Below are positions 11,358 through 56,834 of a stretch of 56,834 nucleotides of DNA, in pieces (within the stretch, counting starts at the first letter, position 1; every line of letters starts with the position of its first letter). Where the stretch lies: the IMG/VR virus record IMGVR_UViG_3300029708_000018, positions 1 to 56,834 of that record. One strand, written 5' to 3'. The notes under the pieces were generated by a model. It was not told the origin of the DNA, did no database searches, and saw only the letters and a list, made by a program, of their open reading frames with translations. The translations under genes were made by a program, and so were the position numbers. The DNA comes from a virus.

Positions 11358-11726
11358 ATGACAGATGAACAGCAGAAGAAGGTGTTTGCAGAAAACTTAA
11401 ATTACTATATGGAATTAAACCATAAGCAACAAATTGACGTTGCTAAAGATTTAGGAATAAATGCAACAACATTAAATATGTGGTGTAAGGGCAATTCAAT
11501 GCCGGGAACTGGTAAATTAAGGAAGTTAGCTGATTATTTTCATGTAGGAATGACTAATCTGACAGATATAAGAAATACTGACGATGAAGACATTAGATAT
11601 TCTAATGCAATAGCAAATATCAGTATGAATGATGAACGTTTTCGCAACATAATTGTTACTTACAATGAAATGCCTGCTGACAAAAAAGAAACATTTTGTG
11701 AATTTTTCGAAAAGTTTATACAGTAA
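11358..11726 (+). CDS. CI-like XRE-family repressor (122 aa) with no recognisable S24 peptidase domain.
   Basis: HKQQIDVAKDLGINATTLNMWCKGNSMP is the HTH. AAAGGAGG RBS. Divergent from the Cro-like gene. Confidence 0.75.
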   Translation: MTDEQQKKVFAENLNYYMELNHKQQIDVAKDLGINATTLNMWCKGNSMPGTGKLRKLADYFHVGMTNLTDIRNTDDEDIRYSNAIANISMNDERFRNIIVTYNEMPADKKETFCEFFEKFIQ

Positions 11727-11730
11727 CAAA

Positions 11731-11762
11731 AGAGCAGGGTTATCTCCCTGCTCTTTCTTCTT
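11731..11762. terminator. Bidirectional intrinsic terminator.
   Basis: Stem AGAGCAGGG/CCCTGCTCT with a 6-nt loop, followed by a T-rich tail on the plus strand. Confidence 0.7.
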
Positions 11763-11856
11763 TATAGAAACTTTTAACAAAATTATAAAGTATCTTTATT
11801 ATCTTGTCATTTTCTATTTCTTTTATCATTTGTACCATCTCTTTTTTGCGATCCAT
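11740..11856 (-). CDS. Micro-ORF (38 aa, MDRKKEMVQMIKEIENDKIIKILYNFVKSFYKEERAGR) under an SOS-box promoter.
   Basis: GGAGGG RBS lies 7 nt upstream of the ATG. A consensus promoter is about 30 nt upstream. The stop sits in the terminator loop. Confidence 0.5.
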   Translation of the reverse strand: MDRKKEMVQMIKEIENDKIIKILYNFVKSFYKEERAGR

Positions 11857-12096: not shown

Positions 12097-12930
12097 ATGG
12101 ATAATGTAGAACTGAACGACACAAAACCTAAAAACAGGAGAGAAATATCAATACTTAGTATTGTCAGCGTTATATTTCTTGTTCCGGCTGTCTTGATATT
12201 TATTCTCGATTTCGCCGCAGGGGAAAACATACCATTGTGGATAGTAATTATTCTTGCGGTTATATCTGCGGCTATCGGAATTGTAGACGTAGAAATCGGA
12301 CATTGTAAAGCTGACCGGCGATTACACTTTTTGTCTGTTTTGTCTATTGTGCTTGCAACCATAAGTATTTCGGTTGCGATCACGTTCACGGCGGCAAGCT
12401 ATTATATTAATCAGATAGGTAGTTTATTTACAACATCAATAAGTGAAGAAAGTAATGTTGATACTGAAAAAGACAGTGAGACAGAGACAGAACAAGAAGA
12501 AAAGCAAGAAAAGAAAAAGACAACCTCGACAGCTAAAAAAGATACAAGTCCAAAAACAATTACTGCTAAAGTTGGCGGCGGCGTAACATATGGAAAAGCC
12601 AAAATTTCATTTACAAATTGCTACGAATATACGGATTATGATGAATGGACAGCACCAAAAGCCGGATATAAAGTTGTTGTATTTGAGTTCGAAGTTGAAA
12701 ATGGGAATAGTAGTAATTTTGATTTTGGTTCTTACGGATTCGAGGGATATGCTGATAATGTAAAGGTTGACCCTTATTATTACATGGATTCGGTCATTGA
12801 ATTGAACTTAGCACCGGGAAGAACTGGTACTGGTACTATTGCTTTCGAGGTACCGGAAGATGCACAGAGCATACAGGCAGATTATGATTTTGGTGGAAAT
12901 AATATAGCTGTTTTCGTATATGGGGAATAA
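12097..12930 (+). CDS. Membrane-anchored protein with a DUF4352-like Ig-fold C-terminal domain. Prophage-expressed moron candidate.
   Basis: Two or three N-terminal TM helices, an acidic linker, then GYKVVVFEFEVENGNSS...LAPGRTGTGTIAFEVPED. GGGAGG RBS. Confidence 0.7.
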   Translation: MDNVELNDTKPKNRREISILSIVSVIFLVPAVLIFILDFAAGENIPLWIVIILAVISAAIGIVDVEIGHCKADRRLHFLSVLSIVLATISISVAITFTAASYYINQIGSLFTTSISEESNVDTEKDSETETEQEEKQEKKKTTSTAKKDTSPKTITAKVGGGVTYGKAKISFTNCYEYTDYDEWTAPKAGYKVVVFEFEVENGNSSNFDFGSYGFEGYADNVKVDPYYYMDSVIELNLAPGRTGTGTIAFEVPEDAQSIQADYDFGGNNIAVFVYGE

Positions 12931-33909: not shown

Positions 33910-34191
33910 TTATTTTATATCCGCAACGCTTTCCACAAAGCAATTGTAGTAGATATATCTCTTGCCGTTAAAATCAAACTTAACATATCCACCATCGTTT
34001 GTGCTAAGGTCAATCTTGCCTTTGTATGTTGCAAGTTCTTTACCATCTGCCGTGTATACAGTAATGGTTCTCTGCATACCACCGTTTGCATCGCTTTTCA
34101 TGTCTACCACAAATCTGTCCCACGATGCGCATCCGGTCATTCCTAAGCACAATGTCAATCCTAATACAATTGCTATAATTTTCTTCTTCAT
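33910..34191 (-). CDS. Lipoprotein (93 aa).
   Basis: MKKKIIAIVLGLTLCLGMTGC is a signal peptide with a lipobox. AAAGGAG RBS. Confidence 0.75.
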   Translation of the reverse strand: MKKKIIAIVLGLTLCLGMTGCASWDRFVVDMKSDANGGMQRTITVYTADGKELATYKGKIDLSTNDGGYVKFDFNGKRYIYYNCFVESVADIK

Positions 34192-34202
34192 AAAATCTCC
34201 TT

Positions 34203-34481
34203 TCAATTCATGCATAACACTTTTTCGCAAACATCAATACATTCTTTTCTCTTCTCATCATTGGTACACTTGCCATCTGCATTGTATTGACAAGAAGTCA
34301 GATTGCATTTTTTATTTTCATAAGCATTATTTACATTATCAATCCATTCACGAAATGGAACATTATTGATCGTGGCATTGTCTAATGCTTCGTCATCCAC
34401 TTTTTGTACTATTTCTTGTATTGATATTTTCACAATTTCACTCCCTAAAACATTCTTCCAACGTTCTTCTATCAGCTTCAT
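34203..34481 (-). CDS. Hypothetical Cys-containing protein (92 aa).
   Basis: ORF track. Confidence 0.45.
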   Translation of the reverse strand: MKLIEERWKNVLGSEIVKISIQEIVQKVDDEALDNATINNVPFREWIDNVNNAYENKKCNLTSCQYNADGKCTNDEKRKECIDVCEKVLCMN

Positions 34482-35189: not shown

Positions 35190-35348
35190 TCATTGCCACA
35201 TAAAGGCTATGGCAAGTATCTGACCAAACATGATAGCGATACCAATGAGCCTTGTGGTAACTGTCTCTTTTTCGTTTAATGTGGCACTTGTCATTCCCAA
35301 TGCAATTAATGCCAGCCATATTGTTGTTGCAATTTTTAAAATAAACAT
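35190..35348 (-). CDS. Small membrane protein (52 aa, 2 TM helices). Not in the ORF track.
   Basis: GAGGTG RBS lies 6 nt upstream of the ATG. Sequence: MFILKIATTIWLALIALGMTSAT...LIGIAIMFGQILAIAFMWQ. Confidence 0.55.
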   Translation of the reverse strand: MFILKIATTIWLALIALGMTSATLNEKETVTTRLIGIAIMFGQILAIAFMWQ

Positions 35349-40977: not shown

Positions 40978-41130
40978 CTAGAAATTTTTTGCGGTGCAAA
41001 AGTTTTGTTCCGTAAAAATCAGCGATTTAGCTGTATAACTGGACTGCTTCAATTCTTTTATTAACTTTTCCTTAGTCATTCCCGGATTAGTCCTTTGTAT
41101 ATATTCCAGTAATTCATTTAATTTATCCAT
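40978..41130 (-). CDS. Small protein (50 aa, starts MDKLNELLEYIQ).
   Basis: The internal ATG overlaps the upstream stop (coupling). Confidence 0.45.
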   Translation of the reverse strand: MDKLNELLEYIQRTNPGMTKEKLIKELKQSSYTAKSLIFTEQNFCTAKNF

Positions 41131-41452
41131 AGTATCTATCACTCCTAACTGCTCCAAGTACCATATCAACAATGTCAAATACTTCATCTCCATAAGTTGC
41201 TACAAAATCGCACAATATCTCTTCCTGCTCAATTGGTAAATACACATCATAGGACATACAGATTGCGTGGCATACTTCATGTATCAACACCTTGCGTTCC
41301 ATGTGTCCATGTAAAGCATTTGACAGATAAATTGTGTGTGTATTTCTATCTGTTACACCCAAGCTGATTGTGTTGTTAGACCGCCTTAATTCGCTTGAAT
41401 TTGAATTTTTATATTGTACTTGCCACATTGTGCCATTAATTGTAAAAATCAT
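41123..41452 (-). CDS. HExxH zinc metallopeptidase-like protein (ImmA/IrrE- or SprT-like, 109 aa).
   Basis: LIHEVCHAI motif. Located in a regulatory neighbourhood. Confidence 0.55.
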   Translation of the reverse strand: MIFTINGTMWQVQYKNSNSSELRRSNNTISLGVTDRNTHTIYLSNALHGHMERKVLIHEVCHAICMSYDVYLPIEQEEILCDFVATYGDEVFDIVDMVLGAVRSDRYYG

Positions 41453-42213: not shown

Positions 42214-42560
42214 TATGCAACACCTACCTTTCCTTTTGAGGTAAGCTCATAGCCGCCCACGACACGCCTTACGCTCTTGTCATTCATAGTGGCGGCAAAA
42301 GCTGCGATACTGTCTAAGTACTTCTCATTATCGCAATCTAAAGCAATCTGCATAATAATTTTTCTTAACTGTTCTTTTCTACACTCGCAAAGCAGTCTCA
42401 TGTTTTCCTCGTCTACCTTGTCAAATTCTTCTCTCCATTTAATTCTTGCCATATCATACCATTCCTTTCTGAAAACAATCTTGAATTTTCCGAAAGAAAC
42501 TGATAGAATAAATTTATCAATCTCTTTCGGATTGTGTTTCGAGTAGTCAATTACCGCCAA
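42213..42560 (-). CDS. Hypothetical protein (115 aa).
   Basis: ORF track. The ATG overlaps the next gene. Confidence 0.5.
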   Translation of the reverse strand: MAVIDYSKHNPKEIDKFILSVSFGKFKIVFRKEWYDMARIKWREEFDKVDEENMRLLCECRKEQLRKIIMQIALDCDNEKYLDSIAAFAATMNDKSVRRVVGGYELTSKGKVGVA

Positions 42561-42571
42561 GTAATGTTTGA

Positions 42572-42766
42572 CTACTCTTTTTTGCTACCCTTAAGTTCTT
42601 TTTCAACCAACCCTATGCCTTTCATGATGGTATCAGTTCTTGTTAATTCCAATTTATCAGCACATTTTTGAATACGATTAGCTTCATCTTTTGTTATTCT
42701 GATATTAAGATTAACATTTCTAGGGTTTTCCTTATGTGGTCTTCCTGCCGGACTGATGATAATCAC
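42572..42766 (-). CDS. Ribbon-helix-helix (CopG/MobC-like) regulator (64 aa).
   Basis: GRPHKENPRNVNLNIRITKDEANRIQKCADKLELTRTDTIMKGI fits the RHH pattern. Confidence 0.6.
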   Translation of the reverse strand: MIIISPAGRPHKENPRNVNLNIRITKDEANRIQKCADKLELTRTDTIMKGIGLVEKELKGSKKE

Positions 42767-42804
42767 TTCCTTTCAATTATTGCCCTTGCAATATTTATAT
42801 CATT

Positions 42805-42833
42805 ATAATAACTGCACGTGCATTAATTGTCAA
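42805..42833 (-). promoter_or_regulatory. Promoter TTGACA-17-TATTAT with the 10-bp palindrome TGCACGTGCA in its spacer.
   Basis: Read on the minus strand. The palindrome occupies 42813-42822. Confidence 0.55.
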
Positions 42834-42897
42834 GTACTTTTTGAAAGAATTTTAAACTTACAAATCACTAGCCGATATTCAGTTATCAATGTACTTT

Positions 42898-42928
42898 TAA
42901 AAGGCTATGAATATTGCTACTCATAGCC
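42898..42928 (-). terminator. Intrinsic terminator ending the cargo cluster.
   Basis: Stem GGCTATGA/TCATAGCC followed by TTTTAAAAG. Confidence 0.65.
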
Positions 42929-42935
42929 CTGAAAT

Positions 42936-43607
42936 TTACAGTTTAGAAACAAGTGTACTAAGTTTGGTGCGCATAAGATTGCGCTCTTCTGCTGTCATAT
43001 CGCCAATAAGCTGTGTAATATCGCCGCCAAGTTCCTTGATATAGCCGTCAAGGGCTTTCATCTTATGTTCCTTGTCCTCCGGCGTGTTGTTTTTATGCAT
43101 TTCCTTAGTCTCTGTATAGTTTCTCTTTGCCCTGTCATAGCCGCTTTCAATCGTATGTGATGAGCCGTTGTCTGATACAACAGGCTCTGTATAATACATT
43201 CGCCCCATGTCCTTGTCCATGTCACGCATATATTCAGGATCGTTGTAGTTTATCGGCATATGATAATATGGTGGTTCTTCATATCCCCTGCGGTATGTTC
43301 CTTTACCTTTAGGGGCAAATCTGCCATTAGCATAGCGATAGTGGTCGTAGTATCTTCTACCACTTTCTTCGCCATATTCTGCCTTAAGGCTTCTTAAGAG
43401 TTCTTTGTCGTACTCTTCTTCCTCTTCATCAGCCTTTTTCATAGCCTTGGAAATTATTGAATGATACTCGGCTTCTGCAAGGTCTTTAATCATATCCACG
43501 ACTTCGCCCATTTCGGAAGTGTCAACATTCTCAATGCCCTTTTCAAACTCATTGACGGCTTTTTCTGTAAGGCACTCCTGCATTTTGTGTATTCTTTCAA
43601 TGTGCAT
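42936..43607 (-). CDS. Tyr/Arg/Asp-rich charged protein (223 aa), function unknown.
   Basis: GGGGGTGAG RBS. Central YYDHYRYANGRFAPKGKGTYRRGYEEPPYYHMPINYNDPEYMRDMDKDMGRMYY. Confidence 0.6.
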   Translation of the reverse strand: MHIERIHKMQECLTEKAVNEFEKGIENVDTSEMGEVVDMIKDLAEAEYHSIISKAMKKADEEEEEYDKELLRSLKAEYGEESGRRYYDHYRYANGRFAPKGKGTYRRGYEEPPYYHMPINYNDPEYMRDMDKDMGRMYYTEPVVSDNGSSHTIESGYDRAKRNYTETKEMHKNNTPEDKEHKMKALDGYIKELGGDITQLIGDMTAEERNLMRTKLSTLVSKL

Positions 43608-43618
43608 CTTCTCACCCC

Positions 43619-44038
43619 CTACGCTTCACGAACAGCAATTAAGTTACTATTCTGCACTTCAATAGCCTGTGTAGACGTATTCTGCACTGCTACAGTACTG
43701 CAACAGCCGCAAGGTACATCAACGTATGCCTGAGCCGAAACGTTAAATAAATTTTCAACAGCGGCAGGTGTAACGACCATTCGTGTTGACTGTAAAGGCT
43801 CTCCGTCTACTGCAATGGCAAGTGATATCTCTCCAACTGTACCGCCTGTAGGTATCTGAATGTTGCCGCTATAAGATACTAAAAATCTTGCTCTACACTG
43901 ATTTGTAATACCTCTTAACTTAATGATTCCGCTTCCCTGTCTGTGTACGATACATTTTGTTCCGTTTACTGCCGTTTCTGTGAATGCAACATCTTCTCCG
44001 GCGGCAACTGTTTGTAATGCAATTCCTGTTATTTCCAT
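43619..44038 (-). CDS. Beta-rich protein (139 aa). Possibly a C1q/TNF-like (BclA C-terminal-domain-like) jelly roll.
   Basis: AGAGAGGT RBS precedes the internal ATG (MEITGIAL). The alternating-pattern sequence ends in ...VQNSNLIAVREA. The fold is a guess from memory. Confidence 0.5.
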   Translation of the reverse strand: MEITGIALQTVAAGEDVAFTETAVNGTKCIVHRQGSGIIKLRGITNQCRARFLVSYSGNIQIPTGGTVGEISLAIAVDGEPLQSTRMVVTPAAVENLFNVSAQAYVDVPCGCCSTVAVQNTSTQAIEVQNSNLIAVREA

Positions 44039-44057
44039 TATCTTTACCTCTCTTTCA

Positions 44058-44088
44058 TAAAAATAAGGGCAAACATTATAGCCTGCCC
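44058..44088 (-). terminator. Intrinsic terminator inside the cargo cluster.
   Basis: Stem GGGCA/TGCCC followed by TTATTTTTAT. Confidence 0.5.
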
Positions 44089-44162
44089 TTTGTGTTTGTA
44101 AGTAATACTGCTTAGCAGACATAATCGAGTTAAACTCAATTAAGATACTCAATTATTCAGTT

Positions 44163-44936
44163 TTAGCAATTACAGCCGGTGTTGCAACCGCATCCATATG
44201 CATAACCATAAAGGTTAGAAGCTGGGAACGATGGAACCGGTGTAGGTCTTACTGCGTCAATGATCTGATTTGTCTGTGCGCTCATTGCGGAAGTCAGAAG
44301 TGCATTTTGTCTATCCTGTGAAGCGGCTCTGCGTAAATCGTTATTCTCTGCCTGTAAGGTTGCAATCTTGTCATTTGTCAGGAAGTCAAGAATTGCTCTT
44401 GTTCCTGCCTGCTGGCTGTCAATAATATCTCTTGTATTGTTGTTCATTGTGTTCTGCAAAGCGCAAGTGTTAGTTGCCATGTTGTAGTTTACACCCTGAA
44501 TGGCTTCTCTCGTCTCACAGCAACAGTTAGCAAGCTGTGACTGTAAAGCGTTGGTATTTTGCATATTAGCGACTGTATCAGCGTTAATAGCCTGCTGTAT
44601 GCCATAGCCCGTCTGCATGATATTTGTGTTAATACCATTAAAGCCTGTGAGCATACTGTTGTTCATGGCATAAAAGCCGTCACATAAGCCGTTTGAAATG
44701 CCATCAAGTTTTGACACAACAGCCTGATTATCAAAACCTCTCTGAATCTCACTGCCGACACCGCCATTCATTCCGTTTCCTCCGAATCCGTTGCCGAATC
44801 CACCCCATCCGAAGATAGCGAAGATAACGATAATGAACCATAACCATGAGCCTTCTGCGCCCCATCCGTTGTTATTTCCGTTTCCGTCAATGTTCGCAAC
44901 AAGCGGAACGGATGCACAATTACCTGTGTTAAACAT
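44163..44936 (-). CDS. Membrane-anchored Gly/Asn/Gln-rich protein with a CCC motif and a Cys-rich tail (257 aa).
   Basis: GGAGGT RBS lies 7 nt upstream of the internal ATG (MFNTGNC). TM segment WLWFIIVIFAIFGWGGFG. C-terminus GYAYGCGCNTGCNC. Confidence 0.6.
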   Translation of the reverse strand: MFNTGNCASVPLVANIDGNGNNNGWGAEGSWLWFIIVIFAIFGWGGFGNGFGGNGMNGGVGSEIQRGFDNQAVVSKLDGISNGLCDGFYAMNNSMLTGFNGINTNIMQTGYGIQQAINADTVANMQNTNALQSQLANCCCETREAIQGVNYNMATNTCALQNTMNNNTRDIIDSQQAGTRAILDFLTNDKIATLQAENNDLRRAASQDRQNALLTSAMSAQTNQIIDAVRPTPVPSFPASNLYGYAYGCGCNTGCNC

Positions 44937-44989
44937 AGAATTTACCTCCATAATTCATTTTTATATACATAATCTTGCAAGAATTAGTA

Positions 44990-45217
44990 TCACATTCCTA
45001 ATTGACTTTTAAACGACTCAAAAGCCTTATCTGCGTCAATTCCCTTTTCTTTGCACAAATTCCTAGCCATCTGCTCTATGCCCTTGGAATCTCCATTTTG
45101 TGCCATCTGCATAGCATTTCTAGCCATTGGATTGCTCATCACACTGTTATTTCCCGCTATTTGCTGTAAAAGCTGTTGTGGGTTTTTCATGCCTTGTAAC
45201 ATCTGCATAGGATTCAT
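44990..45217 (-). CDS. Met/Gln/Asn-rich small protein (75 aa).
   Basis: ORF track. Starts MNPMQMLQGMKNPQQLLQQ. Confidence 0.5.
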   Translation of the reverse strand: MNPMQMLQGMKNPQQLLQQIAGNNSVMSNPMARNAMQMAQNGDSKGIEQMARNLCKEKGIDADKAFESFKSQLGM

Positions 45218-45738
45218 TAAGACTCACTCTCCTTTTGTGTTCGTGAAGTTTTTCTTTGTGTTCCTAAAGATTTATCAAATCTATCTTCTAACTGCCCTAT
45301 CTTCTCTGATAACTCTTCAAACTTATTTAAGAATAGCTGTGTGCTTTCGTCTGATAGGGTAAATTTAGCGTTTTCTGCATTAACCATAGAATTTACCGCC
45401 TGATTATCTTTAGGGGCTGTATAAGGTTTATACACAATCGTGTTAATAGTTCCGTCAGCATTCCAACCTTTAACATAAATCTCCGACATATCCTGCTTTG
45501 GGAAAAATGCCATTGAGCCATCCATAGGCACTTCATTTGCATTAATATTTTCAACTGCCTGTACTACCCTGCCATTAATTCCTGCTATCTGCTGTGGCAT
45601 AGGCTGCTGATTCATCTGCATAGGCTGTTGCTGTAAGCTCTGCTGATAACTTTGTAAAAAATTCATTCTATCCATATATGGATTTTGAGATTGTATATAA
45701 GGATTATTCATCATAGGTGCCTGATAAGGATTGTTCAT
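45217..45738 (-). CDS. Protein (173 aa) with a Q/N/P/M-rich (prion-like) N-terminus, a beta domain and a C-terminal helix.
   Basis: Starts MNNPYQAPMMNNPYIQSQNPYMDRMNFLQSYQQSLQQQPMQMNQQPMPQQ. Confidence 0.6.
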   Translation of the reverse strand: MNNPYQAPMMNNPYIQSQNPYMDRMNFLQSYQQSLQQQPMQMNQQPMPQQIAGINGRVVQAVENINANEVPMDGSMAFFPKQDMSEIYVKGWNADGTINTIVYKPYTAPKDNQAVNSMVNAENAKFTLSDESTQLFLNKFEELSEKIGQLEDRFDKSLGTQRKTSRTQKESES

Positions 45739-45856
45739 CTTCTTTGTCCTCCAAAACTTCCTCTATCGCTTTAATGACAAGAGATAATGTCATTAGGTCG
45801 ATTTTTTGTAACTCGCTTTTAGCAAATATTTGTTCTCTCACATCATCGTCAAACAT
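45704..45856 (-). CDS. Small acidic protein (50 aa, MFDDDVREQIFAKSELQKIDL...). Not in the ORF track.
   Basis: AAGGAGATG RBS. Its 3' end overlaps the next gene's start by 35 nt. Confidence 0.4.
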   Translation of the reverse strand: MFDDDVREQIFAKSELQKIDLMTLSLVIKAIEEVLEDKEDEQSLSGTYDE

Positions 45857-45868
45857 AACATCATCTCC

Positions 45869-45890
45869 TTATGCCTAAATTGTGGCATAA
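45869..45890. promoter_or_regulatory. Palindrome TTATGCC-N8-GGCATAA abutting the RBS of the first cargo gene.
   Basis: Read directly. Related GCATAAGG/CCTTATGC motifs recur at about 45934, 47404 and 47429. Confidence 0.45.
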
Positions 45891-45922
45891 AAAAAGAGAA
45901 GAATATTTCCATGTTCTTCTCT
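45889..45922 (-). terminator. Intrinsic terminator between attP/int and the cargo cluster.
   Basis: 9-bp stem AGAGAAGAA/TTCTTCTCT followed by TTTTTTT on the minus strand. Confidence 0.65.
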
Positions 45923-45951
45923 AATTATTGCCACGCATAAGGTTTTTCCTA

Positions 45952-45980
45952 TGTACCATTCATGTACCAATATTGTACCA
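45952..45980. repeat. Three direct TGTACCA(A/T)T repeats. Candidate integrase arm-type sites.
   Basis: Copies at 45952, 45963 and 45974. Confidence 0.5.
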
Positions 45981-46190
45981 TTTTTTATTTATTTATGTGA
46001 ATATATAACAAATTATATAAAATTAAGTTTTCATGTGAAATGCTGTAAAATTGAGGTACGTTGTAGTTTATAAGGATATAACAAACTATGTTAAATACTC
46101 CTCATGACAACAATACCAAGTTTCATTTTTGATTTTACCTGTTCAAAAACCCCTTATTTTAGGGATTTTTGCCTTTCTATTTTTGATTTA

Positions 46191-46208
46191 TGTACCAATT
46201 CTGTACCA
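46191..46208. repeat. Two direct TGTACCAAT repeats. Candidate arm-type sites next to the 3' end of int.
   Basis: Copies at 46191 and 46202, in the same orientation as the 45952-45980 set. Confidence 0.5.
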
Positions 46209-46239
46209 ATTTATTTGAATATACTATATTTTGATTATT

Positions 46240-47370
46240 TTATATTACTTTGAGTGCTTCTGCTACTCTGTCCATTTCTAAGTTCTTTTGTTCGTCTGTC
46301 GTGTGAACATAAAGATTCATCGTGATACCTATGTTTGAGTGTCCTAGGATTGTCTGCAAGGTTTTGGGTGTCATACCAGCTTCAATACATCTTGTTGCGA
46401 ATGTGTGTCTTAATACGTGCATTGAGAATCTCGGTATGTGCGCTCTATCACACGCTTTGTAAATCCCAGTATCATATGTGCTATTTTTCACAGGTGCCCC
46501 GGTCTTACACAAAAACACTATGTCTCTCCATTGAATATCAATACATTTGAGCGAAGCGTTTTTGAGTTTCTGTAATTTCAACAAAGATATTGCTTCATCA
46601 GTGAGTGGAATTGTCCTATATCCTGATTTACTTTTAGGCGGTCCCTCTCTCCATTCGCCTGTTGAATGTCTATACTCTAAGCTCCTGACTATGCTTATGG
46701 TCTTGGCTTTAAAGTCTACATCTTTCCATTTAAGCCCCACAAGTTCGCCTGTTCTTAGTCCGGTCTGCAAGACAAATCTGTATTGATACTCGTATGATGT
46801 ATCTTTGATAGCTTCGCAGAATTTTTTCTGATTTTCTATCGTTAGTGTTTCTTTCTTTGAGGACTCCTTGCCGATGTCGGATTTTACCATGCGGTTGCAC
46901 GGATTTTTTGGGATGATCTCGCTTTGATATGCATAATCAAGCATATTATATAGTGCTATGCGTGTCTGATATATTGTTGCTGTTCTGTAATCCTCGTCAG
47001 CCATATTAGTCATTATCTTTTGGCAGTGGAGCGTATTAACTTCTCGCAGTATCTTATTTCCGATAACAGGCTTTATATTGCGATTGTATCTCTCGGTGTA
47101 GTTCCTTAGTGTGTTTGGTCTTACTGTGCGCTTCTTAACGCTTATCCAGTAGTCAAACCATGCGTCAACCAACATATCAGACGGAAAATCAGGATTGCTA
47201 TGCTCATCAGTGTACTGCTCATCAGCAAGCCACTTTTTGCACTCTTGTAGTTTTGCAAATAATTTCTGTACTCGCTTTCCATTCCTCGTTGTGTATCTGC
47301 CGACATAGTACTTGTCTTTTCTTTGACTAATGCCCCTACCTAGCTCTTTACCTTTCAAGTCCTTTCCCAT
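46240..47370 (-). CDS. int: Tyrosine integrase (Tn916 / phage-integrase family, with an N-terminal arm-binding domain).
   Basis: C-terminal HVLRHTFATRCIEAGM...LGHSNIGITMNLYVH (H-x-x-R...Y). N-terminal GISQRKDKYYVGRYTTRNGKR. Confidence 0.9.
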   Translation of the reverse strand: MGKDLKGKELGRGISQRKDKYYVGRYTTRNGKRVQKLFAKLQECKKWLADEQYTDEHSNPDFPSDMLVDAWFDYWISVKKRTVRPNTLRNYTERYNRNIKPVIGNKILREVNTLHCQKIMTNMADEDYRTATIYQTRIALYNMLDYAYQSEIIPKNPCNRMVKSDIGKESSKKETLTIENQKKFCEAIKDTSYEYQYRFVLQTGLRTGELVGLKWKDVDFKAKTISIVRSLEYRHSTGEWREGPPKSKSGYRTIPLTDEAISLLKLQKLKNASLKCIDIQWRDIVFLCKTGAPVKNSTYDTGIYKACDRAHIPRFSMHVLRHTFATRCIEAGMTPKTLQTILGHSNIGITMNLYVHTTDEQKNLEMDRVAEALKVI

Positions 47371-51200: not shown

Positions 51201-52169
51201 TCATACTGTATTTTCTTGCTTTATATTCAGATTTTTAAACATAGCGCACATAACATCTACGACAATACTGTTTCCAAATTGCTTATACAACTGCGTATTG
51301 CTGTTTACTGCTGCCATTTTGTCAATATCTTCATCAGATACACCCATCAGCCGTCCACACTCTCTCGGCGTTAGCTTTCTGATACGATATTGCGTGGCAA
51401 TATGGCTATTTGCATATCCGTGTGTGCCAGCTACAAGATTGGCCGATATGCCATTATCGGAAATAACTGTACCGCATTGAGAACCATTGCTTGATATTTG
51501 ACCGACTTTTTCAATAACGGCATTATCTGCATTAAACCCAGTCATATTGCTGCGTTCGTAACCACTCAAAATTGTACTTGTAATGTCATTCTGTTTGCCT
51601 TTAGTGGATATGCCTTGTTTTTCAAGGACCAGGTTATCTTTCTGCACACTCGTCAAGCAATTACTTGTGCCTTGCATATTCACCTCTAATCTCTGCTCTG
51701 TTGGGTTTCCCACAGTTCTATCTGACGGATTATCAGGATTTCTGCCACGCATAGCGACTATGCACATATTGTCTTTGTGTGCACCTATCCCTTTGTAATA
51801 CCGTGATGTTACTGTACTTGCTGTTGGTGTATCGACATCACATATTTGGGCATTATCTAAGCTGTCCAAATGTCCTTCCGGCATTTTATTCAATTTGCAC
51901 GGAATTTGCTCTTCAAGAATTTTCGGCTCTTGATTGCCATCTTGTATTGTGCTCAATGTTGGACTCCCATCATCATAAATTCTGTTGGTACTCTCAAATA
52001 TTGCTTCAAGAGAACCTATTACATTTACATCTGTTATTACTTCAATCACTCCGCTACTTGTTTTATTGGATCTTAGGGTAGGACAAATTCCCTCCCTAAG
52101 TACCTTTTCGCCACCGAATTTTTCACTTTCAAAAAGCACTATTCCGATAGCGTCTGTTAATTTTTCCAT
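51201..52169 (-). CDS. C5-cytosine DNA methyltransferase, C-terminal subunit: several TRD-like segments plus motifs IX and X.
   Basis: RKLTPRECGRLMG (IX), QLYKQFGNSIVVDV (X), and five or six xPT[LV]-type segments. GGAG RBS lies 7 nt upstream of its own ATG. Confidence 0.75.
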   Translation of the reverse strand: MEKLTDAIGIVLFESEKFGGEKVLREGICPTLRSNKTSSGVIEVITDVNVIGSLEAIFESTNRIYDDGSPTLSTIQDGNQEPKILEEQIPCKLNKMPEGHLDSLDNAQICDVDTPTASTVTSRYYKGIGAHKDNMCIVAMRGRNPDNPSDRTVGNPTEQRLEVNMQGTSNCLTSVQKDNLVLEKQGISTKGKQNDITSTILSGYERSNMTGFNADNAVIEKVGQISSNGSQCGTVISDNGISANLVAGTHGYANSHIATQYRIRKLTPRECGRLMGVSDEDIDKMAAVNSNTQLYKQFGNSIVVDVMCAMFKNLNIKQENTV

Positions 52170-53122
52170 TCAATTACTCCATTACTTCCATAATTATCAA
52201 GGCCTTTATAATCTCTTGCCCTAAGAGTTACGGCTACATCAATCTGTTTGTCTGCCGTCTCTCCCATATCCTTTAACAACCAAGTTTCCAACTTGTTGTT
52301 GGTTTGATCTCTCTGTTGTGGCTTATTGATTGTTCCGTCAACGCATGTCTGTCTGTCAAGATTGTGTTGTGGTAAGGTGCCGTTGTCAATAAGCTGTTTT
52401 ATCAGCTTGTCAGCCTTTTCATTGTTGATGTAATACTTTTCATCTACATTATCCTCAAGATAGTCTTTCAACTTCTTTTTGAGTGGTATAGGCTGCGGAA
52501 AATGGTAATTGTACTCACCCAGAAATGAAAACATAAAACATCTTTCACGATTTTGTGCTACACCATAATTTTTAGCATTTAAGTCTTGATAGTAATTTGT
52601 GTAACCCAGGCCTTCAAGGAAGTCTAACCACTTTCTAAAATCAGGCATATTATCTTGACTATGCACCTGTGGCACATTCTCCATGAATAAAATCTGTGGC
52701 AATTCTCCGCTGCTGCCTTTGATTTCTTTCAGTATTCTTTCAACTTCCCATAACAGACCGCTTCTTGTGCCACTGCCCTTAGACATTCCGGCTTGCTTTC
52801 CGGCAACTGATAAATCTGTACAAGGGAATGAGTAAGTAAGTATGTATGTAAATGTATCTGTGTCGCAAATATTCAAATCTTCTGCATGGATCTTGGTTAT
52901 ATCCATTGTAGGAAAATCCGTACCATGCACTGCGTTATAGCTTGTAATAGCGTACTTATCAAACTCCACAACTCTGTAATGTTCAAATTTAGCACCTATT
53001 CTCTTTAGCGCCATTGCCTGACTTCCGTAGCCGGCAAATAGTTCTATCAATCGTATAGGCTTTGTTATGTTGATCGGTTCTCTTGTGAAGTCAAATAAAG
53101 ACATTTGTATTAAATCTTCCAT
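52157..53122 (-). CDS. C5-cytosine DNA methyltransferase, N-terminal catalytic subunit (motifs I-VIII plus the first TRD).
   Basis: ELFAGYGS (I), SFPCTDLS (IV), ENV (VI), QNRERCF (VIII), VTLRARDYKG. Confidence 0.85.
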   Translation of the reverse strand: MEDLIQMSLFDFTREPINITKPIRLIELFAGYGSQAMALKRIGAKFEHYRVVEFDKYAITSYNAVHGTDFPTMDITKIHAEDLNICDTDTFTYILTYSFPCTDLSVAGKQAGMSKGSGTRSGLLWEVERILKEIKGSSGELPQILFMENVPQVHSQDNMPDFRKWLDFLEGLGYTNYYQDLNAKNYGVAQNRERCFMFSFLGEYNYHFPQPIPLKKKLKDYLEDNVDEKYYINNEKADKLIKQLIDNGTLPQHNLDRQTCVDGTINKPQQRDQTNNKLETWLLKDMGETADKQIDVAVTLRARDYKGLDNYGSNGVIEWKN

Positions 53123-53160: not shown

Positions 53161-54078
53161 TTATACAAGGCTCTCCGATAAAAAATCTTCAATGCTCATT
53201 TGTCCTACTGGACAATTCATTTTGTCAGCATTTGCGGCAATTTCAAGGTTTGCAACTGCCTGTTTGTAATAGCTTTCCTTAAGTTCAAATCCTATGCCGC
53301 GTCTGCCGAGTGTAACAGCCACATATGGACTGCTGCCGATTCCGGCAAATGGGTCTAATACAATGTCGTTCGGATTCGTCCACAGTTCGATGCATCTCTG
53401 AATCACTTCGAGCTGCAAAGGACAAATGTGACGCTCGTCCTTTTCTGCTCTTGCCGATTTTTTCTGCAATGTGTCAGACTGTCTTATATCCATCCATACT
53501 GGACTTGCGTAATTCCGCCATACATCAACCGGAAATGTTTCATGCGTATGCGACACTCTTTCCGGATTTTCTCCCGGCTTGCGCATTGTAACGATATAAT
53601 CCGGTATTCCCTGTCGATTCATTGTACTGTCTTTTCTAATCTGCTTATGTAATAACCCTAAAGCCTTTGTCCTATGCATCTCAGTAACCGGATTTTTCCA
53701 AATCGTAACCTTGCTGTGATAAATAAATCCGCAATCTTCAAAAATCTGTCTGCAAAGTGCCGGAAAGTCTTTAAGACCAATAACTCCGTCTCTTTCTTTC
53801 ATGAGTGGCAAATCCATGCAATGAAATGAAAGTAATCTGCCCGGCATTGTAACTCTGTAAAGTTCCTTTGCAAGAAATTTGAAATGATCGTAAAACTCTG
53901 TATCTCCCTTGCAGTTCCCCATGTCCCTGTCGCTGTTAGAATATGTATACAGGCTTGCAAATGGCGGACTGAAAATTGTGTAGTGAATGCTGTTATCTGG
54001 GATATTTTTTATAAGTTCCACACTGTCTCCGTTATAAATTGCATACTGTTTTTCAATTGTCTGCGCTAAAACGTCCAT
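53161..54078 (-). CDS. Beta-class N4-cytosine/N6-adenine DNA methyltransferase. The SPPF motif suggests N4-cytosine.
   Basis: IFSPPFASLY (motif IV) lies N-terminal to DPFAGIGSS (motif I). AAGGAG RBS precedes the internal ATG at 54078. Confidence 0.8.
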   Translation of the reverse strand: MDVLAQTIEKQYAIYNGDSVELIKNIPDNSIHYTIFSPPFASLYTYSNSDRDMGNCKGDTEFYDHFKFLAKELYRVTMPGRLLSFHCMDLPLMKERDGVIGLKDFPALCRQIFEDCGFIYHSKVTIWKNPVTEMHRTKALGLLHKQIRKDSTMNRQGIPDYIVTMRKPGENPERVSHTHETFPVDVWRNYASPVWMDIRQSDTLQKKSARAEKDERHICPLQLEVIQRCIELWTNPNDIVLDPFAGIGSSPYVAVTLGRRGIGFELKESYYKQAVANLEIAANADKMNCPVGQMSIEDFLSESLV

Positions 54079-54094
54079 TTTTTCTATCTCCTTT

Positions 54095-55462
54095 TTACGC
54101 TGTAAATTCTTCCCATTCCGGCAAAGCCATTGTTTCATGTGGCTCATATGGGGTGCTGATTCTGCAAGTGTTTTTCAGTTCTTTCTTTGTAATCTCTTTT
54201 GTCAGTTCTGTCATTTCTGACTGCATTTTCTGAAAATCTTTCTGCTTTCTCTCAATGTTTTCTTTGACACACCCCTCTTTCGAAGAAATGATTATGTACA
54301 CATTTACTGCTTCCGTCTGACCAAATCTCCAACATCTTCTCAACGCTTGGTAGTACTGCTCGTAGCTGTCTGAAAGTCCGGTAAAAATCATATTGTGGCA
54401 ATTCTGCCAGTTCATGCCAAATCCGGCAATCTTAGGTTTTGTGACTAAGCATTTAATATCCCTATTGCTAAAATTCAACATTGAGCTTGACTTGTGCGTA
54501 TCTTTGTCGCTGCCTTGCACTTCCACAGATTCATTAATCAGTTCATGTAATTTGTGGCTTTCGTCATTCAGATCACACCATACAAGCCACTGCTCATCTG
54601 AACTGTTTACCAATTCTGCCGCTACTGTGCATCTGTCAATTAAGCTATCTTTTCTAGCCTGTCTGCGCTCTGTCAGCGTGAGTTTTTCGGTCACAGGTTC
54701 TTTTCCGTCAACAACAATTTCTTTAATGTTAATTGGCGGCAAGTTATACCCGGAAACGTCATATCCAATATTGTTTGGATTGTCCACGAACACACTGAAT
54801 GTCGCTAACCACTGCCAAAATACATCCTCTGCGTGTCCTTTTAATCTCCATTTTGATGTTTCTCCGCCATCATGAACAAAGAACATGGAAAGCATTTCTG
54901 CCCTTGTCATAACTCCACAAAATTCTGAATGATTTCCCAATTCCATGTAGTCATTCGGTGCTGGAGTTGCGGTACAAGCCAATTTGTACGGCACATCATG
55001 GAAATTCTGAATAATCGCTGTCCTCACCTTGCCGGAATAAGATTTTAAGATACTACTTTCATCAAGTACGATTCCGGTAAATTCATTTGCGATAAATCTA
55101 TCCAGTTTTTCGTAATTCGTGATGTTAATTCCGTCAATACATTGTGATTGTTCCTCAACGACATTTGCCACATATCCAAACTTTTCCGCTTCTCGTTTCG
55201 TTTGATCTGCAACTGCCAATGGTGCAAGGATAAGCACCTTGCCGCCTGTATGCACGTGAACTTGATGCGCCCACGATAACTGCATAGGTGTTTTTCCAAG
55301 TCCACAATCAGCAAAGATACAAGCCTTTCCTTTCTTTAACGCCCAACGAACAATGTCTTTCTGAAAATCGTATAACATTGGGTTTAATTCGGATTTATCA
55401 ATGTCGAATCCACTGCTTTCAAGTACGAATCTTTTATTTGCTAAAAATTCGTTATAATCCAT
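54095..55462 (-). CDS. SNF2/DEAD-like superfamily-2 helicase.
   Basis: ADCGLGKT (Walker A), VLDESSILK (DExx), and a C-terminal helicase domain. Confidence 0.8.
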   Translation of the reverse strand: MDYNEFLANKRFVLESSGFDIDKSELNPMLYDFQKDIVRWALKKGKACIFADCGLGKTPMQLSWAHQVHVHTGGKVLILAPLAVADQTKREAEKFGYVANVVEEQSQCIDGINITNYEKLDRFIANEFTGIVLDESSILKSYSGKVRTAIIQNFHDVPYKLACTATPAPNDYMELGNHSEFCGVMTRAEMLSMFFVHDGGETSKWRLKGHAEDVFWQWLATFSVFVDNPNNIGYDVSGYNLPPINIKEIVVDGKEPVTEKLTLTERRQARKDSLIDRCTVAAELVNSSDEQWLVWCDLNDESHKLHELINESVEVQGSDKDTHKSSSMLNFSNRDIKCLVTKPKIAGFGMNWQNCHNMIFTGLSDSYEQYYQALRRCWRFGQTEAVNVYIIISSKEGCVKENIERKQKDFQKMQSEMTELTKEITKKELKNTCRISTPYEPHETMALPEWEEFTA

Positions 55463-56403: not shown

Positions 56404-56834
56404 TCTGAATCACCCACTTTCAATAAATCCATAAACTTCTCATACTGTTTCTGCGATACCTTGTTATGCTTCTTATCGTCTCTAATTTCGATTTTAAGGT
56501 GTTTTTCTGCGATAGAGGATAATTCTCTTGCCAACGCCTTTTTGCCTTGCTGTATGCCCTGCATATAGCCTTTAGGTGCTTTTCTCTCGCCTATTGAACC
56601 ACTAGCACGATTTTCTCCTTGACCGCCTAAACTGACATTTCTAAGCTGATAACCTTTATCGGCATATAGCTTGATGTAATACTTCTCTTTCTCATCAAGC
56701 TGACTTTCGGGGAAATTCAGAAATTCAACTCGCCAGCCATAAGGATTTTTCTCTTTATCGTACAGCTTATGGCGCTTCAAACTAAGGTCTATATGCTGTT
56801 CATAACCTACAAGGTGGCTTGCCAATCTGCTAAG
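56400..56834 (-). CDS. GIY-YIG nuclease, C-terminal part. The N-terminus is encoded at 264..100 across the junction.
   Basis: The frame stays open to the window end. The repeat 56736-56834 = 1-99 places the GIY...YVG motif upstream. The TTG start in the ORF track is an edge artefact. Confidence 0.7.
   Translation of the reverse strand, partial: LSRLASHLVGYEQHIDLSLKRHKLYDKEKNPYGWRVEFLNFPESQLDEKEKYYIKLYADKGYQLRNVSLGGQGENRASGSIGERKAPKGYMQGIQQGKKALARELSSIAEKHLKIEIRDDKKHNKVSQKQYEKFMDLLKVGDSE
56736..56834. repeat. Terminal direct repeat, right copy (identical to 1-99).
   Basis: Same 99-nt string as the window start. Confidence 0.9.

Follow-up and report, generated by a model that had tools for sequence, protein, structure and literature searches.

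A conserved six-gene phage accessory cassette beside the attachment site of an IMG/VR virus

Introduction

Between a candidate attP site and a terminator, IMG/VR virus record IMGVR_UViG_3300029708_000018 (positions 1 to 56,834, all 56,834 nucleotides of which are here called the window) carries six adjacent ORFs of unusual composition. A first-pass annotation had viewed them as a loose six-gene cargo with a possible spore-coat or exosporium role, or as a self-assembling surface matrix. We find that the six ORFs constitute one self-contained, widely conserved phage accessory cassette and are not host-derived cargo; this is well supported, as is an invariant core of P2, P4 (a bitopic membrane protein with conserved Cys clusters), and P5. 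The cassette, which thousands of phages carry, is among the commoner uncharacterised gene sets of human and animal gut Firmicutes phages, with thousands of protein clusters, and we found no literature on it. All features located by coordinates below lie on the minus strand.

Gene content of the cassette

The six ORFs are all present with the features described for them previously: P1 (45704..45856; 50 aa, acidic), P2 (45217..45738; 173 aa), P3 (44990..45217; 75 aa, M/Q/N-rich), P4 (44163..44936; 257 aa), P5 (43619..44038; 139 aa), and P6 (42936..43607; 223 aa, with a Tyr/Arg/Asp-rich centre). P4 is listed as a 262-aa ORF (44951-44163), and a start at M6 gives 257 aa (44936-44163); the shorter length, as originally annotated, is correct, because the homologue alignments begin at M6 and a GGAGGTG lies 7 nt 5′ of that ATG. 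Substitutions relative to related sequences are in excess at codon position 3 in P1 to P5 (248/95/1070 in P4 and 340/198/1460 in P5), and on these sequence grounds P1 to P5 are judged to be real genes under purifying selection, beyond chance. Homologues of P6 exist at the protein level, including one with 45% identity in Dulem virus 39, and P1 is 42% identical to its homologue in that virus.

None of the six had been placed in a known family, and Pfam, NCBIfam, PADLOC, and PDB sequence searches likewise gave no named function. Three of the six proteins match PHROGs, P2 (phrog_21718), P4 (phrog_16490 at 5e-54), and P5 (phrog_20016 at 4e-66), all annotated as "unknown function"; no structural PHROG or Pfam family matches a cassette protein, the scaffold PHROG scoring E = 0.25 with P6. 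The one PADLOC match is that of P4 to the ZorA tail (E = 9e-4, 16 bits), a similarity at the coiled-coil level only, and nothing matched the other cassette proteins; none of the components looks like an exclusion or defence protein already known.

A fixed-order, movable module

Rather than a loose cargo, P2, P4, and P5 make up a phage module of fixed order, together with P3, P6, and further small genes, and gene co-occurrence places it at ~80 loci in Lachnospiraceae, Oscillospiraceae, and Selenomonadaceae. P2, P4, and P5 are found together in ~69 of 92 mapped loci, with the P2 family present in 72 of the 92, and gene order and adjacency are kept even though the proteins have diverged to 30-50% identity. 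We also considered that the ORFs could be unrelated neighbours, either small independent morons or ORFs that arose by chance, sharing no function, as might be supposed from the lack of any protein of known function and the very short P1 and P3; however, the conserved order at such divergence, the codon-position bias, and the conserved intergenic RNA described below all speak against it, and with the synteny data effectively refuting it we give it next to no credence.

The neighbours of the module vary. In many loci endolysin or holin genes lie upstream and integrases downstream, and in ~15 the module comes immediately after CHAP, GH25, amidase, or holin genes; elsewhere it lies beside head or baseplate genes, or early genes, and this variety identifies it as a movable cassette. 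In locus L086 the major capsid gene immediately precedes it; in L066 it has a gp7-like head protein on one side and, on the other, genes whose size and order alone would fit scaffold and capsid; and in L067 it comes ahead of a Gp10_C baseplate protein. In crAss the P4 homologue belongs to a tail block and carries a spike or fibre annotation, the homologue in crAss cr52_1 is two genes from a LysB/FtsL-like protein, and early or replication genes surround P4 in CPD1 and Bacteroides phage C3_41T2LP. In the window, attP and a terminator enclose the cassette, which is ~9 kb upstream of the terminase gene. P5 and P4 proteins that are 85-96% identical adjoin very different phage backbones, including MAGs labelled as siphovirus, myovirus, and podovirus, and HNH genes are inserted in the module in Ceridwen, L007, L064, and CPD1. 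A second architecture, variant B, opens with F4, a 127-aa protein whose conserved Cys, His, and Asp positions look, by eye, like those of a papain-like peptidase.

Butyrivibrio is a non-sporulating genus, and the module is present in Butyrivibrio phage Ceridwen. This phage was observed in lytic growth only, and its authors consider it virulent. The presence of the module in a virulent-looking phage argues that the cassette is not purely a lysogeny function and, taken with the host, argues against a spore-coat role.

Attachment site and integration

The attP core or overlap region (46108..46126), ATGAAACTTGGTATTGTTG, mimics the first codons (MKLGIV) of host ychF. Contigs that share the integrase of the window at 97% identity end, or pass into host ychF, at 46126-46108, which substantiates the candidate attP, and many IMG/VR contigs end at this core. 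Integrated relatives (L096, L097, L104, L118, and L110) match the window as far as the attP core and then continue into a host protein, which we take to be the P-loop N-terminus of YchF. Two TTGGTACA arm-type repeats (46191..46209) lie on the int side of attP and three (T)TGGTACA arm-type repeats (45952..45980) on the cassette side, the first of the three overlapping the -10 of a promoter-like site. The tyrosine integrase gene (46240..47370) is followed by its own terminator at 46170-46145.

Since the attP core corresponds to the 5′ end of host ychF, integration leaves int and the cassette at opposite prophage ends, with the cassette a short way downstream of the ychF promoter; the attP/ychF junctions thus agree with the position proposed previously for the block, between attP and the terminator. 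Three different integrases adjoin the same cassette, namely tyrosine integrases with 97% and 51% identity and a serine recombinase, and close relatives with the large serine recombinase split sigG, right after spoIIGA-sigE. The integrated cassette is directly downstream of, and co-oriented with, a host promoter in both situations, that of ychF for this phage and that of sigG for the serine-recombinase relatives.

Promoter-like sites, terminators, and a conserved RNA element

Two sigma-70-type promoter-like sites (45972..46039), TTCACA-16-TATAAT (11/12) and TTCACA-18-TGgTACAAT, precede the cassette; these are consensus matches only, and promoter-like sites in the region are no more numerous than in shuffled sequence. 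A leader hairpin of 9 bp followed by U7 (45889..45922; MFE -33.1 kcal/mol, z = -3.9) lies 33 nt upstream of the P1 start, and part of the P1 Shine-Dalgarno sequence is base-paired in a stem that encloses this hairpin; the hairpin sequence is not kept in the serine-recombinase relatives.

Directly 3′ of the P4 stop is a structured RNA (44056..44126) comprising AUGU, hairpin B, AUUAC, and a GC-rich hairpin C with a U-run, the last of which is terminator-like (44090-44065). Internal terminators had been claimed in the plural, and of these one conserved intergenic terminator-like site stands, not several. Compensatory changes occur in 14/14 pairs of this RNA, and paired cells amount to 92.5%, compared with 73.5% in shuffles (0/500 shuffles). 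The covariance model recovers the window with 51.7 bits and also 28 loci that are not part of the model, with one match each at 31-67 bits, and the matches begin just 3′ of the P4 stop wherever P4 was mapped; an Rfam search of 42500-46500 gave no relevant match to this RNA at E <= 1. The cassette is made up of two parts, P1-P4 and P5-P6, divided by this conserved, covarying RNA element.

The closing terminator, annotated earlier at 42898-42928, is found after P6 at 42928-42899 as GGCTATGA-N10-TCATAGCC followed by TTTT; a generic terminator scan missed it, probably because its 10-nt loop is longer than the 3-8 nt limit of the scan. Beyond it, at 42833-42805, is a strong promoter-like site for the next genes.

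Proteins of the core and their partners

P4 has the TM segment, GNGFGGNGMNGG, the CCC motif, and the GCGCNTGCNC tail that were previously reported, arranged as an acidic N-tail, a Gly-zipper TM helix, a ~160-residue helix, a Pro-rich linker, and a Cys-rich tail. The AF2 model, of low confidence (pLDDT 58.6), has a TM helix at 30-43, followed by one helix that spans 71-229. The CCC and tail cysteines are conserved in 88-98% of family members, and the acidic N-tail has 2.9 D/E versus 0.4 K/R, a weak bias. The family has 1,625 clusters at 50% identity and at least 7,900 at 90% identity, and includes C. perfringens, Bacteroides, and crAss-like phages.

P5 had been likened to C1q/TNF-like BclA C-terminal domains, and its AF2 model (pLDDT 91.4) is indeed a C1q/TNF jelly roll. 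The nearest structures by Foldseek are F-BclA, ExsFA, BxpB, and BclA (9h38, 7r1m, 8d02, and 1wck; TM 0.6-0.72, E 4e-8 to 8e-6), at 8-18% identity, and stand-alone phage homologues have TM 0.8-0.86; a cyanophage A-1(L) tail-fibre domain, the cyanophage A4 portal-tail complex, and the phi812 central spike knob are further PDB structure matches. The P5 family has >5,000 clusters at 90% identity, and C112/C113 are invariant. P5 resembles the BclA C-terminal domain, F-BclA, ExsFA, and BxpB in fold and size (~135-150 residues), and these Bacillus exosporium proteins have no signal peptide, like P5. It differs from them in being phage-encoded, including by a phage of a non-sporulating genus, and in having a membrane coiled-coil protein as its partner in place of the ExsY/CotY basal layer. 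P5 has neither a GXX collagen-like repeat region nor an extra N-terminal domain or exosporium-targeting motif, and there was no Pfam BclA_C match at E <= 1.

P2 combines a Q/N/P/Y-rich N-terminal tail, described as prion-like, with a small conserved domain at its centre, in which hydrophobic and aromatic residues are abundant, and a short C-terminal coiled-coil helix; profile comparison gave, at best, weak matches to trimeric coiled-coil families. In P6 an R/G/Y/D-rich low-complexity centre lies between helical N- and C-terminal regions, and P6 is the long form of a family whose 144-aa short form is phrog_28802 (unknown function). A similar 72-aa protein, F5, takes the slot of P3 in other lineages, and P1, P3, and P6 are lineage-variable small or low-complexity partners of the P2/P4/P5 core. 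A 109-aa HExxH protein (41123..41452), with a weak SprT-like match, is a homologue of family F8, which comes after P6 in 18 loci, although its membership of the cassette is uncertain. By eye, none of P1, P2, P3, P5, and P6 has an export signal, and a secreted form of the surface matrix initially suggested is unlikely because five of the six proteins lack one.

Discussion

Our overall best reading, with a probability of roughly 0.4, is that this phage accessory cassette builds a membrane-tethered stalk-and-knob complex. Once inserted, P4 would expose its short acidic N-tail on the outside and project its stalk and Cys-rich tip into the cytoplasm, an orientation suggested by the weak charge bias, and would there dock a trimer of the signal-less P5, possibly via the conserved cysteines of both proteins; P2, P3, and P6 may serve as adaptor or matrix proteins of the resulting tethered assembly.

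In its genomic behaviour the cassette is like a large moron. Lambda bor/lom, HK97 gp15, and staphylococcal immune-evasion genes are morons or lysogenic-conversion cassettes situated between lysis genes and attP, and the cassette shares with them upstream promoter-like sites, end terminators, an att-proximal slot, a variable, movable position, and swapped integrases, to which the inserted HNH genes can be added. Unlike typical morons it is much larger (5-7 genes), far more conserved, and also found in an apparently virulent phage, and it lacks homology to any known moron product. From the moron-like behaviour together with the presence in a virulent phage, our view is therefore that the cassette works at the cell membrane for the benefit of the phage. 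Its most likely role would seem to be to exclude competing phages or to take part in another membrane-linked infection step, with host spore or cell-surface conversion seeming less likely.

Several observations count against the stalk-and-knob reading, among them the low confidence of the P4 model, the weak charge bias, the lack of likeness to known exclusion or defence proteins, and a number of promoter-like sites that does not exceed that in shuffles. In addition, coiled coils, a TNF-like knob, and low-complexity tails resemble structural parts more than defence enzymes, and the presence of the module in some head/tail operons and in the crAss tail block fits a role in the virion or its assembly equally well. 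P4 and P5, with P2, could be an optional trimeric fibre, needle, decoration, or ejection protein, with the Gly-rich hydrophobic segment of P4 inserting into the membrane during infection. A TNF-like knob on a coiled-coil or collagen stalk is a standard phage fibre design, the cyanophage and phi812 matches conform to it, the absence of signal peptides is typical of virion proteins, and the capsid, head, or baseplate neighbours in L086, L066, and L067 point the same way, as does the spike/fibre annotation in crAss. The Sf6 tail-needle knob and the PRD1 P5 spike are trimeric needles or spikes with TNF-like knobs, and from general knowledge of them, as opposed to a comparison made here, they have the same combination of a long helical stalk and a TNF-type jelly-roll head; however, the cassette encodes its stalk and knob as two polypeptides, anchors the stalk by a TM segment, shows no similarity in sequence to PDB entries, and in most phages lies outside the tail modules. 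Fibres and receptor-binding tips co-vary with the particle and diverge fast, unlike P5 and P4, which are nearly identical across differing backbones; the usual site is after lysis genes or beside att, set off by terminators; P4 is among early genes in CPD1 and C3_41T2LP; and no baseplate or capsid anchoring domain was detected. We thus consider a virion role possible but rather unlikely. An accessory role in lysis or egress, in which P4 acts after holin and endolysin or times lysis, is suggested by the ~15 loci that directly follow lysis genes, by the LysB/FtsL-like neighbour in cr52_1, and by the peptidase likeness of F4. Superficially, P4 resembles i-spanins (Rz/LysB type) or lysis regulators, sharing with the former an N-terminal TM, a coiled-coil body, conserved cysteines, and a frequent site after endolysin, but it is about twice their size and has no o-spanin or other lipoprotein partner, no lipobox ORF being seen in the cluster. 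The hosts are mostly monoderm (Lachnospiraceae and Oscillospiraceae), for which we know of no spanin step, the spanin PHROG matches are insignificant (E = 0.4), and no recognised lysis gene is near the cassette in the window and its relatives, where it follows attP, all of which makes this explanation improbable.

A related intracellular structure of a hitherto undescribed kind, with membrane-anchored trimeric P4 stalks, P5 caps, and a low-complexity P2/P3/P6 matrix forming an exosporium-nap-like layer at the inner membrane face or, in sporulating hosts, on the forespore, might be switched by the RNA and act as a novel superinfection barrier or couple the phage to host development; we regard this too as improbable. 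The proposal that the cassette is lysogenic-conversion cargo assembling a coat- or exosporium-like layer on the lysogen spore or cell surface draws on GerQ-, CdeC-, and BclA-like features, of which the P5 fold and the compositional likeness stand and family membership does not. The nearest solved structures to P5 are exosporium proteins, in composition the proteins bring to mind Q-rich GerQ, Tyr-rich CotC-like, and Cys-rich coat proteins, the missing signal peptides would fit assembly in the mother-cell cytoplasm, and both the att-proximal position and the sigG insertion of close relatives, which puts the cassette behind the sigG promoter, are in keeping with it. Nonetheless, besides Ceridwen on its non-sporulating host, the module occurs in Selenomonadaceae contigs and inside some head/tail blocks, and P4 in Bacteroides and crAss-like phages; Pfam and NCBIfam gave no Spore_GerQ and no CdeC-related Cys-rich family for P2 and P4; and P5 lacks a BclA_C match, collagen repeats, and an exosporium-targeting N-terminus. 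Moreover, sigG is specific to the forespore whereas it is the mother cell that makes coat and exosporium proteins, and this phage integrates at ychF, which is no sporulation gene. A coat or surface role is accordingly very doubtful for the cassette in general, although a sporulation-linked role may exist in this sublineage, given the sigG integration of its relatives.

What began as six odd ORFs is now a defined module with a P2/P4/P5 core, two architectural variants, a mapped attachment site, and a conserved regulatory RNA. Should the cassette turn out to work in exclusion or defence, or as an assembly bound to the membrane, phage biology would gain a new class; should it belong to the virion, a recurrent dark-matter block in gut viromes would be explained. 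Cultured lysogens carrying the module include Lachnospira intestinalis CLA-AA-H89B and Lachnospiraceae bacterium JLR.KK009, and with the module so defined and these lysogens named, its function is directly testable.

Prophages that interrupt sporulation genes include skin in sigK and SPbeta in spsM (PMC4191935, PMC5595907), and the intervening elements found in our literature search sit in sigK, spsM, gerE, and yabG. The close relatives of the window phage are similar to such prophages in that they split a sporulation gene, in their case one for a sigma factor, and carry a large serine recombinase; they differ in that the interrupted gene is sigG, and the window phage differs in its use of a tyrosine integrase and ychF. 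The splitting of a forespore gene, sigG, by these relatives is a side observation worth following up.

Organization of the phage genome and the six-gene cassette

The first bases of the window (at least 50) recur at position 56736, which implies a 99-nt terminal overlap (1-99 vs 56736-56834) and hence a complete, circular phage genome of ~56.7 kb. An IMG/VR record of exactly 56,834 bp codes for an integrase 97% identical to that of the window, and its permutation differs. Among annotated phages, megablast gave no match to an 18-kb portion of the window. Read along the minus strand, the gene order begins with replication and methylase genes, including a helicase, N6/N4 and C5 methylases, a Phg_2220_C protein, and a G39P-like loader. 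These are followed by a 132-aa protein (47855-47457, minus strand) in which a GerE-like HTH (GerE/sigma-region-4-like) and a Tn916-Xis domain share one polypeptide, and then by the tyrosine integrase (47370-46240, minus strand); relatives have a separate 70-aa GerE-like protein directly upstream of the recombinase or of the cassette itself. Downstream of the integrase on the same strand lie a 383-bp spacer, six ORFs (P1-P6), and a terminator. Another promoter-like site follows, ahead of RHH and ORF6N antirepressor-type genes, with the terminase and structural genes last. A cI-like repressor and a divergent antirepressor are at 11.3-10.4 kb. A conjugative-transposon origin of int and xis was considered and rejected, as phage replication genes stand to their right.

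All six ORFs of the first-pass annotation (50, 173, 75, 257, 139, and 223 aa; 45856-42936, minus strand) are present with the features it described. In P1-P5, substitutions that distinguish them from relatives are concentrated at codon position 3, and P6 has clear protein homologues; the start of P4 is M6, where homologue alignments begin and whose ATG is preceded by GGAGGTG. Two sigma-70-like sites lie upstream of the cassette (46039-45972, minus strand), one of them overlapping an integrase arm-type site, with its -10 over the arm-type repeat. The leader upstream of P1 contains a 9-bp hairpin followed by U7 (45922-45889, minus strand), and the segment as a whole (45850-45975, minus strand) has a nested fold (z = -3.9) in which an outer stem that takes in part of the P1 Shine-Dalgarno sequence encloses this hairpin. 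A terminator-like hairpin separates P4 and P5 (44090-44065, minus strand), and a terminator closes the cassette (42928-42899, minus strand), beyond which a strong promoter-like site lies ahead of the next genes. Promoter-like sites are no more numerous than in shuffled sequence, and these promoter and terminator signals are sequence features only.

Integration places the cassette behind a host promoter

The attachment site came to light only through a scan of IMG/VR for the integrase, which yielded 77 loci, 54 of them with an integrase ~95-97% identical to that of the window; a nucleotide search with the int-attP region against the first 92 loci mapped gave no match. On the 3′ side of int, some loci continue as the window does (the circular form), and others stop or change DNA at one point. 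In five loci (L096, L097, L104, L118, and L110), GGTAAAATCAAAAATGAAA is followed by sequence coding for a 25-residue stretch that we recognize as the N-terminus of the GTPase/ATPase YchF. The phage core, ATGAAACTTGGTATTGTTG (46126-46108, minus strand), mimics the first codons of ychF, with the attP mimicry spanning the ychF ribosome-binding site and first six codons (46091-46139, minus strand), and TGGTACA arm-type repeats flank the core on both sides. From these junctions the prophage layout is ychF promoter, core, cassette, rest of the phage, int, core, and ychF body, and the cassette thus lies at the prophage end opposite int, as had been proposed. Once integrated, it is co-oriented with, and just behind, the host promoter. 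The ychF gene is parted from its own promoter and placed behind int and the int terminator, and attL retains an 11-codon remnant ORF (MKLGIVVMRSI*).

In close relatives, a serine recombinase of 453 aa replaces the tyrosine integrase, and the phage is integrated inside sigG, which is forespore-specific. On a 385-kb bacterial contig (L006), such a relative is inserted in sigG after ...FSTYAVPM, directly downstream of murD-ftsW-murA-ftsQ-ftsZ-spoIIGA-sigE, and the cassette starts ~110 nt past the sigG junction. Comparison of this junction (L006 7693-8100) with L005 and L010 (7860-8110), by alignment with the circular phage form, gives CCCATGG as the crossover. The skin and SPbeta elements split mother-cell genes, whereas these relatives split a forespore gene.

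The cassette is a conserved and mobile phage module

The six genes, a cargo cluster in the first-pass annotation, are no set of odd neighbors but one conserved phage module, whose gene order, established by local iterative HMM searches and clustering, is fixed across loci. Scans of all six proteins against Pfam, NCBIfam, and PADLOC returned nothing meaningful, nor did PDB sequence searches with P2, P4, P5, and P6 singly or with P2 and P4 profiles; P2, P4, and P5 match PHROGs, every one listed as of unknown function. The families are very large. At 90% identity, P5 exceeds 5,249 clusters, to which the branch typified by Butyrivibrio phage Ceridwen adds at least 8,000, and P4 has no fewer than 7,908 (1,625 at 50%). 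A scan with a P5 profile, taking one genome per species, gave 80 loci, mostly on contigs assigned to Lachnospiraceae, Oscillospiraceae, Acutalibacteraceae, and Selenomonadaceae. Two of the loci belong to cultured lysogens, Lachnospira intestinalis CLA-AA-H89B (L016) and Lachnospiraceae JLR.KK009 (L020). P2, P4, and P5 are all present in ~69 of the 92 mapped loci, and the remainder are mostly contigs cut at the module.

Two arrangements were found. The window-like variant has P1-P2-P3-P4-P5-P6(long), in most cases with a small HExxH protein (F8; 41452-41123, minus strand, in the window) behind it, and the majority variant has F4-P2-F5-P4-P5-P6(short)-F11, in which F4 (127 aa) has conserved Cys/His/Asp positions and by eye resembles papain-like peptidases, and F5 is 72 aa. 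Among named phages, Dulem virus 39 has all six genes directly after an integrase, Bajarodcaudo virus 5 has P2, P3, and P4 downstream of a holin and peptidase, and Ceridwen has F4-P2-F5-P4-P5-HNH-P6(short)-F11 downstream of a lysin. P4 without the rest of the module occurs in Clostridium perfringens phages, a Bacteroides uniformis phage, and crAss-like phages, with CPD1 adding P2 and P3. By profile comparison, the gene after P4 in Bajarodcaudo virus 5, crAss cr52_1, and CPD1 shows no detectable relation to P5, so the P4-P5 pairing is confined to the Firmicutes gut group.

On its upstream side the module often adjoins endolysins (CHAP, GH25, Amidase_2/3, ELLD) or a holin, and on its downstream side it often adjoins an integrase (10 tyrosine, 2 or 3 serine), which is the classic accessory-gene slot between lysis genes and attP. 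Exceptions are L066, where a gp7-like head protein and the following head genes flank the module; L086, where it comes immediately after the major capsid gene; L067, where it stands ahead of a Gp10_C baseplate protein; and CPD1 and C3_41T2LP, where it is among early genes. HNH endonuclease genes break it up at differing points (L002 9097-9960; L007 8027-8908, minus strand; L011 4095-4745), with an HNH-type gene between P4 and P5 in L064, which suggests homing-endonuclease traffic through the cassette. Within the window's own lineage, the same cassette stands beside three recombinases: a tyrosine integrase at 97% identity, another at 51%, and a large serine recombinase. The varied positions, HNH insertions, and swapped recombinases together mark a mobile, self-contained cassette.

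A membrane-anchored helix and a jelly-roll protein

The module core consists of a membrane-anchored long helix with Cys clusters (P4), a C1q/TNF-type jelly roll (P5), and a protein combining a low-complexity tail with a coiled coil (P2). An AF2 model of P5 from a two-clade alignment is an all-beta jelly roll (pLDDT 91.4, pTM 0.85), whose best PDB matches by fold are the F-BclA C-terminal domain, ExsFA, BxpB, and BclA, followed by the TNF-family ligands EDA and 4-1BBL, C1q, and phage tail-fiber and spike domains. The resemblance to BclA noted earlier is therefore right as to fold, but the same fold is also found in phage fiber tips, and unlike BclA, P5 has neither collagen repeats nor a Pfam BclA_C match. 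Its best BFVD matches are stand-alone proteins of 130-145 aa from siphovirus, myovirus, and podovirus MAGs, some labeled "BclA protein". C112 and C113 are invariant in the two-clade alignment.

The P4 model is poor (pLDDT 58.6), too poor to justify a fold search, and has a TM helix at 30-43 and a single helix at 71-229, as is usual when an oligomeric coiled coil is modeled as a single chain. Its N-terminal tail is acidic (mean 2.9 D/E vs 0.4 K/R), and C85, CCC138-140, C158, and tail cysteines are conserved. P2 has a Q/P/Y/N-rich tail, a conserved central segment (WVxGE..A..YxVAP...V.L.D......Y.KS.D..G.P), and a C-terminal helix with weak matches, exclusively to trimeric coiled-coil families; a Pfam scan (E <= 1) of 64 P2 family members yielded nothing beyond sporadic coiled-coil noise. 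P6 has helical ends and an R/G/Y/D-rich center. By inspection of the N-termini, without a predictor, a hydrophobic segment occurs only in P4, and P1, P2, P3, P5, and P6 have no signal peptide.

A conserved RNA element follows P4

The spacer after P4 is ~85-130 nt in many lineages and has a constant layout of a variable hairpin A, AUGU, hairpin B, AUUAC (AUACU in other lineages), hairpin C (10 bp, GC-rich, then a U-run), and the P5 ribosome-binding site. The element is present in 26 aligned loci. RNAalifold gives 14 pairs with compensatory changes in 14/14, and 92.5% of cells are paired, compared with 73.5% in shuffles (0/500 reach 92.5%) and at most 58% in slid controls. A covariance model recovers the window element (44126-44056, minus strand) at 51.7 bits, the window sequence being included in the model, and matches 28 further loci outside the model once each at 31-67 bits. 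At loci with mapped P4, the match begins just past the P4 stop, even where extra genes precede P5 (L018-L023). Covariation and the covariance-model matches thus establish that the internal terminator predicted from the single sequence is real and conserved, and it probably serves either as a regulated boundary that separates P1-P4 from P5-P6 or as a 3′-end element. No match was found in Rfam and no description in the literature. A small ORF behind the conserved ATG of the element was rejected, since its reading frames differ among relatives. Three additional matches score below 26 bits and resemble generic hairpins, two of them away from P4. In the window, a weak second match (11721-11814, minus strand; 22.8 bits, E ~0.01) lies beside the end of the repressor gene, which is probably a mere terminator hairpin.

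Possible roles of the cassette

The cassette is in kind a phage accessory (moron-like) unit of fiber-like stalk-and-knob design, rather than a proven new system, and we found no study of its proteins in the literature. We infer a membrane-tethered assembly in which P5 would form the knob and the P4 stalk would lie in the cytoplasm, a placement based on the lack of export signals in P5, P2, P3, and P6 and on the acidic P4 N-tail; the conserved cysteines of P4 and P5 are candidate contact or metal sites. The moron-like behavior, extreme conservation across unrelated backbones, and occurrence in a virulent phage suggest a membrane job for the phage itself. Competitor exclusion or another membrane-linked step is our first choice of function, a guess to which we give modest probability.

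A virion component, such as a fiber, needle, or ejection part, would fit the P5 fold and the positions of the module in some phages, but it sits poorly with conservation across morphotypes and with the usual module position; an accessory role in lysis is a further candidate. The spore-coat or surface-matrix role put forward in the first-pass annotation is weakened. For this sublineage it can draw on the close serine-recombinase relative in sigG, after spoIIGA-sigE, but phages of Selenomonadaceae and Bacteroides are also involved, the site of the present phage is ychF, and, weightiest, the module is carried by Ceridwen, whose host genus, Butyrivibrio, is non-sporulating. Only lytic growth has been seen for Ceridwen, and it is considered virulent (PMC7372960). 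A membrane-linked role for the phage remains our preferred reading, and the cassette, being both common and well defined, deserves experimental study.

Other features of the window

No endolysin or holin was recognized among the ORFs scanned across the whole genome. Unexplained ORFs include a 52-aa two-TM-like protein (35190-35348), a lipoprotein (33910-34230), and a 277-aa plus-strand ORF (12097-12930). At 51201-53122 (minus strand), two adjoining ORFs with a slight overlap each match C-5 cytosine methylase, one covering profile positions 2-251 of 324 and the other mainly the C-terminal part (192-322), and may represent a split or duplicated methylase; the N6/N4 methylase follows at 53161-54147.
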